A DNA stretch of 64,000 nt from a phage. Positions 15,906 through 17,245 of the stretch are shown here, piece by piece (the first letter of the stretch is position 1; each line of letters opens with the position of its first letter). A program made the position numbers and the translations under genes. The stretch is taken from the sequence record OZ317122.1; one strand, 5' to 3'. The notes beneath the pieces are model-generated. The model was not told where the DNA came from, did not search any database, and saw nothing but the letters and a program-made list of their open reading frames with translations.

Positions 15906-16685
15906 TTAATTAAAAATATATACTTCATCAGTTCCATTCTTTTCTTTGGAATGATATATGTTAAAGACGTATTTTTTATTAAGATGCTTAACATTATATT
16001 TTTTAGACCATTCTTTAAGAAGAGTGTTTTCCTTTCCGTGATGCTCTAAAACATTCGACAGTCCAAATTTTATTCCTCTGTCATTTAAAGAATCTAAAAG
16101 ATTTAAAAGGTCTTTTTCTTCTTCTTCTGACCAAAATTTATTATAATCAGCAACTGTTATAAGATATGGAGGGTCCACATATACAAAATCGCCGTCTAGA
16201 ATTTTGACATCTTTAAAATGCAATGAACTAAAGATTATTTTATCACAATTTTGCTTAAAGTGATTAAAGCGTTTTTCACTATTTTTGTTTATAGTTCTTT
16301 TTCCAAACGGAGTAGTAAAATTTCCTTTATCGTTTATACGAATCATATTACTAAATCCGTGAAAATGAAGAACATAAAGTAAAAGAGGATCTCTAGTTTT
16401 ATTATAATCTTCACGTAATTTCAAAAACTCTTCTTTTGATGTTTTTGATAGTTTATATTGCTTTATTACTTTTAATACGTCATCCCATGATACATTAATA
16501 AGACGCTTATACATTTCAATAATTGGTTCTTGAATATCATTGGCCAATACAGGACCATTGACGTTCAAAGACACTGATAAACCTCCACAAAATAAATCCA
16601 CGAATCTGTCATATTTTGGAAAATGAGGCTTAAGTTCAGGTAATAATGACTGTTTATTACCTGTATACGCGATAGCTCCTAGCAT
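15906..16685 (-). CDS. dam: DNA adenine methyltransferase (Dam, GATC-type)
   Basis: 259 aa; [10 protein letters not shown] motif and DPPY catalytic motif. Confidence 0.9.
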
Positions 16686-17245
16686 TATATTCTCTCATTT
16701 GTTGCAGCAAAAAACGAATTATATAATTCTTCATCATATGTATTTGATAGTAATACTAACACGTTTTGTGATTTAGCATATTCATTAAACCTTGCTTGGA
16801 TGGTTGGATTATCAGTAAATGATTCTCTTTTTGTCCATTTATTACGTGGATAATATCCGCATGGCAAAAAATCTAATATCATCAATGACACAGGGTTTTC
16901 AGTTTTTGTGTATTCTTTTAATTTCTCTTTATCTTCTAAATATATTCCAACCGAATCAATAGCTGTACCTCCACCAACTTGGTGTTTAATTTCAATTATA
17001 TGCTTTTTACCGTTGCGAGAAATAACAATATCAAATCTTCTAGTACGCTTCTTAGTTATAAAATTAGAACAAAACAAATTATTTGATTTTTCAGTATCAT
17101 CGGTTAAAACCATTTTTTCTTGATAACTAACTGAACAATCAGTGAAATATTCTTTTACTTTATTAAGTATGAAATTTTCAACTACGGCAGATATTTTATA
17201 TGAATCTCCGTTTAAAGCCATTTCATGTACAATTTTATTAATCAT
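16685..17245 (-). CDS. hypothetical protein with PD-(D/E)xK-like motif, overlaps dam start
   Basis: 186 aa; [20 protein letters not shown] (D-x13-E-x-K); own early promoter upstream. Confidence 0.5.

Follow-up and report, generated by a model that had tools for sequence, protein, structure and literature searches.

Organization of the ORF186-dam locus

The DNA studied here is a 64,000-nt stretch of phage sequence (record OZ317122.1; referred to as the window), and our subject is ORF186, an open reading frame (ORF) that directly precedes the gene for the DNA adenine methyltransferase Dam. We favor, with moderate confidence, the view that ORF186 encodes the endonuclease of a compact cassette that resembles a Type II restriction-modification system and is found in T-even-type phages, and the data presented below suggest that the solitary Dam of phage T4 is the remainder of a phage-borne restriction-modification pair. 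The window region is 99.9-100% identical to the Tequatrovirus genomes PYps55T, UTI-E4 and ASO78A and is distinct from T4. On the minus strand, gene 61 (17542-18570) is followed by a terminator-like hairpin, ORF186, dam and the dCTPase gene 56, in this order (Table 1).

An earlier note on this DNA, made from the letters alone, had described a 186-aa ORF directly upstream of dam, with a stop/start overlap and an early promoter of its own, and had supposed that both genes are co-transcribed. The ORF is present where it had been placed, and the overlap consists of a TAATG sequence at 16685 in which the TAA stop codon of ORF186 and the ATG start codon of dam have one base in common. The promoter call is defined by the match of the two hexamers and their spacing to the consensus of T4 early promoters; a TG precedes the -10 element, and in the ASO78A record (99.9% identical) an early promoter is annotated at the same site with one mismatch. 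A generic sigma-70 scan of the region found 11 promoter-like sites versus 12.1 in shuffled sequence, i.e., no excess. The hairpin, a position at which the ASO78A record also carries an annotated terminator, marks the upstream boundary of the transcription unit of the cassette. Judged from this layout of promoter and terminator and from the stop/start overlap, ORF186 and dam appear to form a single transcription unit, in agreement with the earlier note.

Table 1. Features of the ORF186-dam cassette and their positions in the window.
Feature	Position	Strand	Description
ORF186	16685..17245	(-)	186 aa; restriction-endonuclease-like PD-(D/E)xK nuclease (predicted); phrog_8706, function unknown
dam, GATC N6-adenine methyltransferase	15906..16685	(-)	259 aa; profile matches
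Terminator-like hairpin	17360..17379	(-)	7-bp stem followed by a T-run, 3' of primase gene 61
T4-type early promoter (putative)	17271..17300	(-)	GTTTAC 17300-17295, 18 nt, TATTAT 17276-17271
Shine-Dalgarno sequence GAGGA	17253..17257	(-)	7 nt before the ORF186 ATG; read from the sequence
Whole cassette (promoter + ORF186 + dam)	15866..17333	(-)	delimited against dam-less relatives; ~1468 bp (~1.47 kb)
D/ExK motif hairpin, aa 70-89	16979..17038	(-)	predicted catalytic
D72	17030-17032	(-)	codon
E85	16991-16993	(-)	codon
K87	16985-16987	(-)	codon
Helix glutamate E23	17177-17179	(-)	codon
Segment missing in T4	16773..17320	(-)	548 bp; promoter and codons 1-158 (85% of the nuclease gene)

ORF186 and dam are inherited together

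The product of the downstream gene is readily recognized as a Dam methyltransferase (Pfam MethyltransfD12, E 6.5e-51; TIGR00571 dam, E 1.4e-69; T4 Dam in the PDB, E 1e-173). It shows 100% identity to T2 Dam and 97.7% to T4 Dam, and PADLOC files it under 'orphan MTase' (methyltransferase). At each of the 13 loci that we fetched with an ORF186 homolog, a gene for a D12-class Dam protein lies directly downstream, with junctions that range from a 35-nt overlap to a 33-nt gap. This arrangement recurs in at least three genome contexts: in the 61-56 interval of Tequatrovirus, near rIIB in Klebsiella Jiaodavirus, where denB and ndd flank the pair, and just upstream of rIIA on a T4-like contig from a metagenome. 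Hence, the two genes display the adjacency and co-inheritance of Type II restriction-modification genes. Within the same genomes, ORF186 diverges faster than Dam (63 vs 71, 56 vs 72, 42 vs 61, 34 vs 55, and 32 vs 52% identity). Restriction enzymes usually diverge faster than their methylases.

The interval between genes 61 and 56 of Tequatrovirus occurs in four states and thus presents a polymorphic gene between conserved genes, a pattern also expected of homing endonucleases. The full cassette is found in about 147-149 records, and about 35 records carry dam without an intact ORF186, mostly of the T4 type, in which an 87-nt 3' remnant of ORF186 is retained upstream of dam. Several hundred records, the majority, have neither ORF186 nor dam. 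In the third state, the slot is empty (e.g., RB68, RB33, AR1, and RB3), and positions 15866-17333 of the window are replaced by ~40 bp. In the fourth state, seen in Yersinia phage fPS-90 and Salmonella phage GRNsp7, a homing-endonuclease gene takes the place of ORF186 and dam; that of fPS-90 (547-1197 of the fetched locus) encodes a 216-aa protein of phrog_655 (E 4e-60). Since the slot is filled by such a gene in relatives, the 61-56 interval can be viewed as a hotspot for alternative mobile cargo. Among the Tequatrovirus genomes, promoter, ORF186 and dam are gained or lost together as a unit of ~1.47 kb.

The losses are asymmetric. Of the phage records that cover 80% or more of the ORF, 155 in all, 149 have dam contiguous with it and six come from Klebsiella phages; three loci of the Klebsiella-phage group were inspected, and dam was adjacent in each. 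None of these 155 records was seen to carry ORF186 without dam. The reverse situation, an intact dam gene beside a disabled ORF186, has arisen in at least four events, an observational count of few independent events: the T4 type, KarlGJung (a 371-bp deletion), G4500 (a 1-bp deletion) and ESCO58 (a 4-bp insertion). The 548-bp T4 deletion sits exactly between 8-bp direct repeats (ATCACAAA) at 17313-17320 and 16765-16772 of the window. As read from this junction, the solitary dam gene of T4 is a derived state that was produced by a deletion between these repeats. Phage T2 retains ORF186. Its allele (PV958097; ORF at 1501-2046 of the fetched locus) carries a 1-bp deletion in the T-run at window position 16715 and encodes a protein of 181 aa whose last seven residues are replaced, ending in ...YNSFLLQ 13 nt before the start of dam. 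The T4 remnant possesses the frameshifted ending of T2, so that the T4 deletion probably arose on a T2-like allele. Collectively, the linkage to dam and the gain and loss of the cassette provide what we consider the strongest evidence for a restriction-modification reading.

The Dam-profile scan of genome contigs yielded a sole locus, JBOFGC010000160.1 ('MAG: Bacilli bacterium'), which encodes a gp61 primase, a gp56 dCTPase, a DexA-like protein and a Dam homolog (44% identity) without an ORF186 homolog upstream; by its gene content, this is evidently a T4-like phage contig.

ORF186 belongs to a very small and conserved family of phage proteins

In PHROGs, ORF186 matches the family phrog_8706 over its full length (E 3.5e-115; function unknown). 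A tblastn search recovered the protein in 164 phage records, 155 of which contain it near full length. Among the records are that of phage T2 and those of six Klebsiella phages with less than 60% identity (43-45% in the two listed). Intact full-length copies are found in about 150 genomes from several genera, and relatives from metagenomes have identities as low as about 30%. With its few members, this is a very small family: 12 matches, all of them phage-like, were obtained among 1.84 billion cluster representatives, and a search of IMG/VR returned just two loci. Neither the cluster representatives nor two word-indexed searches yielded a bacterial relative, the phage family alone being found, and a tblastn search of plasmids with E values up to 10 gave no match.

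Across ten homologs with 27-63% identity to the window protein, residues E23, D72, E85, and K87 are invariant. The same holds in the ten members for Q42, R69, H82, H88, Q89, G93-T-A-I-D-S98, P118, S120, and D125. In all pairwise comparisons, the proportion of non-synonymous changes (pN) is smaller than that of synonymous changes (pS), and dN/dS amounts to 0.17-0.38 in the pairs with unsaturated dS. These comparisons indicate that ORF186 is a real gene under selection.

Literature searches revealed no account of ORF186, although the 1988 paper on T2 dam could still mention an upstream ORF. The corresponding database entry (M22342; 1.5 kb) contains nearly the whole of ORF186 at 83-618, where it is unannotated. 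Relative to modern T2 genomes, tblastn aligns ORF186 to this entry in two pieces (aa 1-37 and 39-179), a split that points to a sequencing error of that time.

ORF186 is predicted to adopt a PD-(D/E)xK nuclease fold

An AlphaFold2 model of ORF186, calculated with an eight-sequence alignment, has a mean predicted local distance difference test score (pLDDT) of 83 and a predicted template modeling (TM) score of 0.81. It displays the alpha-beta-beta-beta-alpha-beta topology of the PD-(D/E)xK core fold. D72 is positioned on a strand formed by residues 66-77 and faces E85, which resides together with K87 on the adjacent antiparallel strand (residues 80-88) of the same hairpin, and E23 is contributed by the preceding long helix. 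In the model, this arrangement is the standard catalytic layout of PD-(D/E)xK enzymes. The D-x(n)-E-x-K motif within residues 70-89, to which the earlier note had drawn attention, could by itself be due to chance; it becomes meaningful because its residues are invariant, because non-synonymous change is rarer than synonymous change, and because a nuclease fold is predicted. An unrelated fold, the outcome that would have spoken against a nuclease, was not obtained in the structure prediction.

In a Foldseek comparison with the PDB, generic PD-(D/E)xK domains (VC1899, R2 endonuclease, Bax1, and McrC) ranked on top with TM scores of 0.3-0.47. Because of the residue layout and this ranking, the assignment to the PD-(D/E)xK superfamily is secure on the basis of the model, which also suggests, without proving it, a restriction-enzyme subclass. 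The modeled protein consists of a single nuclease domain, with no methyl-reading domain such as the winged helix of DpnI. A structure search of BFVD returned the ortholog of phage MX01 and weak generic nuclease matches; no chlorovirus restriction enzyme surfaced in this search, nor did any strong chlorovirus match. Single-sequence and profile searches of the PDB sequences with ORF186 found nothing, and a scan against NCBIfam gave noise only.

A weak link to DpnII-type restriction enzymes

The profile comparison with PD-(D/E)xK nucleases that the earlier note had proposed gave an in-register match to DpnII, albeit a weak one below the Pfam gathering threshold. DpnII is the best Pfam match of the window protein (16.8 bits, E 0.0046; residues 28-113 against positions 152-235 of the 278-position profile). 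The Pfam DpnII profile (PF04556) is matched, always in the same register, by four of the ten family members and unmatched by the other six; member P0009 has the best score (22.5 bits, E 8.3e-5). DpnII is the top Pfam match of several members, the family's best Pfam matches otherwise being to further PD-(D/E)xK families, and the PADLOC matches of ORF186 are to restriction-enzyme models only, the REase_II model PDLC03548 being matched by the window protein with an E value of 7.5e-5 and by the best family member with 5.3e-6.

For a comparison of alignments, we assembled the protein of the authentic Streptococcus pneumoniae dpnM-dpnA-dpnB locus and the products of seven diverse plasmid DpnII-family genes. 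With hhalign, the phage family scored 32.7 against this DpnII alignment over 91 columns, with a P value of 5.8e-4 and a probability of just 29%. By comparison, 200 column-shuffled DpnII alignments gave a mean score of 14.3 (sd 2.6; maximum 22.8), and the reversed alignment scored 13.6. E23, D72, and E85 fall on the DpnII-family invariants E152, D201, and E214, and RRFDIVI...IIEIK..GGGTAID of the phage proteins is aligned with KRFDFVI...LIEVN..SGSGSKLN of DpnII. Through its catalytic half, ORF186 thus seems to be linked, weakly, to the DpnII/MboI enzymes. GATC cutting by ORF186 is suggested solely by the known GATC specificity of the partner methylase.

A route to DpnII genes through the plasmid neighbors of T4-Dam-like methylases failed, since these methylases belong to AlwI-/FokI-type systems. 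Among plasmid proteins, those nearest to T-even Dam (37-43% identity) are Type IIS methylases or domains of the AlwI/FokI type, mostly from Firmicutes; they are not of the DpnM type, and DpnM itself matches T-even Dam at just E 3e-12. Should the weak link of ORF186 to DpnII hold, the two enzymes of the phage cassette would differ in their nearest relatives.

A proposed restriction-modification-like cassette in a virulent phage

According to the reading that we favor, host RNA polymerase would produce, early in infection, a bicistronic ORF186-dam message from the promoter at 17271-17300, and the TAATG overlap would couple the translation of the two genes. ORF186 would be a small nuclease with the PD-(D/E)xK fold of the EcoRI/MunI-like (alpha) class, with E23, D72, and E85 as Mg2+ ligands and K87 as the remaining active-site residue. 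Its active form, as in other Type IIP enzymes of small size, would probably be a homodimer that acts on a short palindromic sequence, and Dam would shield the phage's own genome from it. The most likely substrate would be DNA without Dam methylation at or near GATC, because the partner is a GATC methylase and because the catalytic half of ORF186 is remotely DpnII/MboI-like. The target may be the Dam-unmethylated DNA of competing T-even relatives that are devoid of dam. From the options offered by the earlier note, it is the methylation-linked nuclease that we prefer, the linkage to dam being kept at every homolog locus; the nuclease fold and the methylation link that it had envisaged have stood up to the comparisons reported here, and the anti-restriction and host-targeting roles found no support.

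The target is the weak point of this model, and it heads a series of observations that weigh against our reading. Enterobacterial hosts are Dam-methylated and offer no obvious target for an enzyme that cuts unmethylated GATC, and the glucosyl-hydroxymethylcytosine of T-even DNA blocks most Type II enzymes. The window protein and all ten family members remain below the gathering threshold of the Pfam DpnII profile (23 bits), and the hhalign probability of 29% is equally modest. The phage proteins begin ~20 residues before the helix glutamate and are without the N-terminal 125-140 residues of DpnII. They also miss the invariant DpnII motif D129-Y-x-x-G...D139-x-N-x-R-K-x-R-x-G148, with N-G as the sole aligned pair. 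In addition, the phage proteins (E85-I-K87 followed by G92-G93-T94) have their lysine at the canonical E-x-K position, whereas DpnII has E-x-N and a later invariant G-S-K. GATC specificity cannot be transferred by homology because N-terminus, basic motif and lysine placement differ, and, as judged from these sequence features, ORF186 does not qualify as a member of the DpnII/MboI family. The order of the genes differs as well: the phage nuclease gene precedes a single methylase gene, whereas in the DpnII-type operons examined the methylase gene (often two) precedes that of the nuclease. With generic domains at the top of the Foldseek ranking, Type II enzymes do not stand out by structure alone. 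The frameshifts in G4500 and ESCO58, two of the four inactivation events, could be sequencing errors, and the pattern by which the nuclease gene never occurs without the methylase gene is drawn from few independent lineages. Finally, every database record examined labels ORF186 hypothetical, and the earlier note named no characterized function for it.

A more specific version of the competitor model offers one coherent possibility for the target. ORF186 might tolerate modified cytosine and cut GATC sites with hydroxymethylcytosine or glucosyl-hydroxymethylcytosine that are without adenine methylation, i.e., co-infecting genomes of dam-less T-even phages; we hold this to be doubtful. In a Dam-positive cell, the only abundant DNA of this kind is a co-infecting dam-less T-even genome, so that the cassette would exclude competitors if this were true. 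The carrier would then depend on dam, the Dam proteins of T2 and T4 would gain a purpose, and the dam gene of T4 would be the antidote left after deletion of the toxin.

Few DNA methyltransferases have been studied as thoroughly as the Dam proteins of T2 and T4. To our knowledge, their benefit to the phages has never become clear, since dam mutants are viable, and the only phenotype known to us is that Dam protects DNA without glucosylation against P1 restriction. If Dam belongs, as the methylase, to a restriction-modification-like cassette, this cassette is intact in T2 and in about 30% of the sequenced Tequatroviruses, the textbook 'orphan' T4 methylase is the product of a recent deletion, and T2, a standard laboratory phage, allows a direct test of the role that Dam originally had. 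A virulent phage with hypermodified DNA would join the short list of viruses with a restriction enzyme of their own, and a new and very small restriction-enzyme-like family (about a dozen members among 1.84 billion cluster representatives) would be added to those known. With ORF186, a small enzyme could become available that merits a test of whether it tolerates modified cytosine. What is new here is the proposed combination of a small endonuclease family with dam in a restriction-modification-like cassette of a virulent phage with hypermodified DNA, which recasts T4 Dam as a methylase orphaned by deletion.

Alternative explanations for ORF186

The variable presence of ORF186 among close relatives, and its location between conserved genes with a putative early promoter of its own, would also fit a freestanding homing-type or otherwise selfish endonuclease that cuts relatives near the 61-56 interval and is copied by recombinational repair, with dam as a passenger or a means of self-protection. 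The bona fide homing-endonuclease gene (phrog_655, E 4e-60) in the same slot of fPS-90 and GRNsp7 and the T4 homing endonuclease SegF, whose gene adjoins gene 56, are further points in its favor. Nevertheless, we consider this explanation unlikely. The constant pairing with dam at three unrelated positions is unexpected for an enzyme tied to one target, the gene-free state of T4 is a deletion with a remnant and not a clean empty site, and the best sequence matches are to restriction-enzyme profiles.

It is rather improbable that ORF186 is what remains of a bacterial restriction gene in decay or without catalytic activity, or that it serves dam as a DNA-binding accessory protein or regulator, in either case with no part to play as a nuclease in the phage. 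Such a relic would account for the frequent loss of the gene (T4, KarlGJung, G4500, and ESCO58) and of the whole cassette, which most Tequatrovirus records do not possess, for the missing DpnII N-terminal domain and conserved basic motif, and for the fact that T4 grows well without ORF186. It is difficult to reconcile with a tetrad that is invariant among homologs just about 28-60% identical to one another, with pN below pS in every pair (dN/dS of 0.17-0.38 where estimable), and with full-length intact copies in about 150 genomes of several genera. Moreover, with 186 aa the protein is near the size of the active enzyme MunI (200-residue PDB chain).

Even less credit can be given to a modification-dependent or -tolerant nuclease (Type IIM/IV-like) that would act on Dam-marked, cytosine-containing host DNA, for which the phage Dam would top up the host methylation and from which the phage genome would be protected by its glucosyl-hydroxymethylcytosine; this scenario seems quite improbable to us. 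An enzyme that targets host DNA had likewise been among the options of the earlier note, and it is unlikely if unmethylated GATC is what is cut, the enterobacterial hosts being Dam-methylated. The host chromosome carries Dam methylation and is degraded early by T-even phages (PMC12871103), early expression of ORF186 is predicted, and in Jiaodavirus the cassette adjoins denB, the gene for endonuclease IV. However, a host that is already Dam-methylated makes a strict linkage to a phage dam gene unnecessary, and the loss of the nuclease with retention of the methylase is left unexplained. A methyl-reading domain is missing from the single-domain model, and the weak homology points to DpnII, which is blocked by methylation, and not to DpnI (PMC4081073).

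An anti-restriction or anti-defense factor, e.g., one that degrades a host defense nucleic acid or signaling molecule, is highly improbable and found no support for the form in which the earlier note had raised it: ORF186 is an accessory, early and variable gene, as is typical of counter-defense, and the fold searches place the nuclease domains of Can2 and Card1, two CRISPR ancillary enzymes, high among their matches, but the model contains no sensor or ligand-binding domain, the PADLOC matches are to restriction-enzyme models only, and the invariant linkage to dam remains unexplained.

Cytosine modification, GATC content and neighboring genes

The earlier note had assumed a phage with hypermodified cytosines, which is plausible. 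The window encodes the gp56 dCTPase, a gp42-like dCMP hydroxymethylase (24466-25206) and a glucosyltransferase (22995-23837); given the genes for the latter two enzymes, a genome with hydroxymethylated or glucosylated cytosine is a fair assumption. Wedged between the dCMP hydroxymethylase and glucosyltransferase genes is an ORF of 213 aa (23834-24475, minus strand) that is missing in ASO78A, which is otherwise 97-98% identical there. At the N-terminus of its product (VYKYKHPKTKKWYIGSH), there is a resemblance to the GIY-YIG motif found in homing endonucleases of the Seg type, and no Pfam match was found for it at E values up to 0.001.

GATC is the most depleted 4-bp palindrome of the 64,000-nt window, with 61 sites observed versus 203 expected from trinucleotide frequencies (ratio 0.30); the second most depleted palindrome is TCGA (ratio 0.63). 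There is no GATC site in ORF186 and one in dam (16388). GATC avoidance is widely reported in enterobacterial phages and attributed to host Dam and MutH, for which reason we set this depletion aside as evidence for the specificity of ORF186.

Between gene 61 and the cassette, a hydrophobic ORF of 66 aa (17345-17545, plus strand; phrog_2024, E 4e-31) overlaps the terminator hairpin of gene 61. It is kept even in dam-less phages and is intact in T4 (3739-3939 of the fetched locus), where it is unannotated in AF158101. On the other side of gene 61, the gene at 18739-19095 (minus strand) takes the position of T4 gene 61.2 and encodes 118 aa versus 208 aa in T4; its annotation in ASO78A reads similar to RB32ORF033c, and it represents another variable cassette, in the 61-41 interval.

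Comparison with known systems

Of the known families, DpnII/MboI comes nearest to ORF186 through the remote sequence link and the kind of methylase partner, and the MunI/EcoRI-like enzymes come nearest in structure. With the DpnII/MboI enzymes, ORF186 would share the alpha lineage of PD-(D/E)xK nucleases, in which the DpnII-family enzyme MboI has been placed (PMC4081073, PMC548270), and it shares the location of its gene beside that of a D12-class GATC adenine methylase (DpnM in the case of DpnII). The alignment of the catalytic halves brings into register the helix glutamate, the segments (K/R)RFD(F/I)VI and (L/I)IE(V/I), and a loop rich in glycine, which reads SGSGSK in DpnII and GGGTAI in the phage protein. 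They differ in size, ORF186 having 186 aa and DpnII/MboI ~280-300 aa, and the carrier of ORF186 is, unlike those of the DpnII/MboI systems, a virulent phage with modified cytosines. Closer in size is MunI (PDB 1D02; about 200 aa), a Type IIP enzyme of the EcoRI-like alpha class that recognizes CAATTG. The order of secondary-structure elements around the D...ExK hairpin is the same in MunI and in the model of ORF186, whereas the two proteins, at 13% identity, have no detectable sequence homology, and MunI is not among the top Foldseek matches of ORF186.

The closest biological precedent for a virus-borne restriction-modification pair is R.CviAI/M.CviAI (GATC) of chlorovirus PBCV-1. Chloroviruses aim such enzymes at the unmethylated genome of their host, whereas the hosts of the phage studied here are Dam-methylated. 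PBCV-1 is a lytic virus that combines a GATC adenine methylase with a PD-(D/E)xK endonuclease (PMC2441816, PMC4081073), and R.CviAI is reported to have no sequence relationship with the families of MboI and Sau3AI (PMC2441816).

With the freestanding homing endonucleases of the Seg and Mob groups, ORF186 has in common that it is a variable gene with its own promoter between conserved genes, in the very same 61-56 slot. Seg and Mob proteins are GIY-YIG or HNH enzymes, whereas ORF186 is a predicted PD-(D/E)xK protein, is always coupled to a methylase and occupies several genome positions. The Dam proteins of T4 and T2 are classed as orphan phage methyltransferases, and it is this enzyme that the downstream gene of the cassette encodes. 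A nuclease-like gene precedes dam in the window phage, in T2 and in some 150 further records, and in T4 dam stands alone as the result of a deletion.

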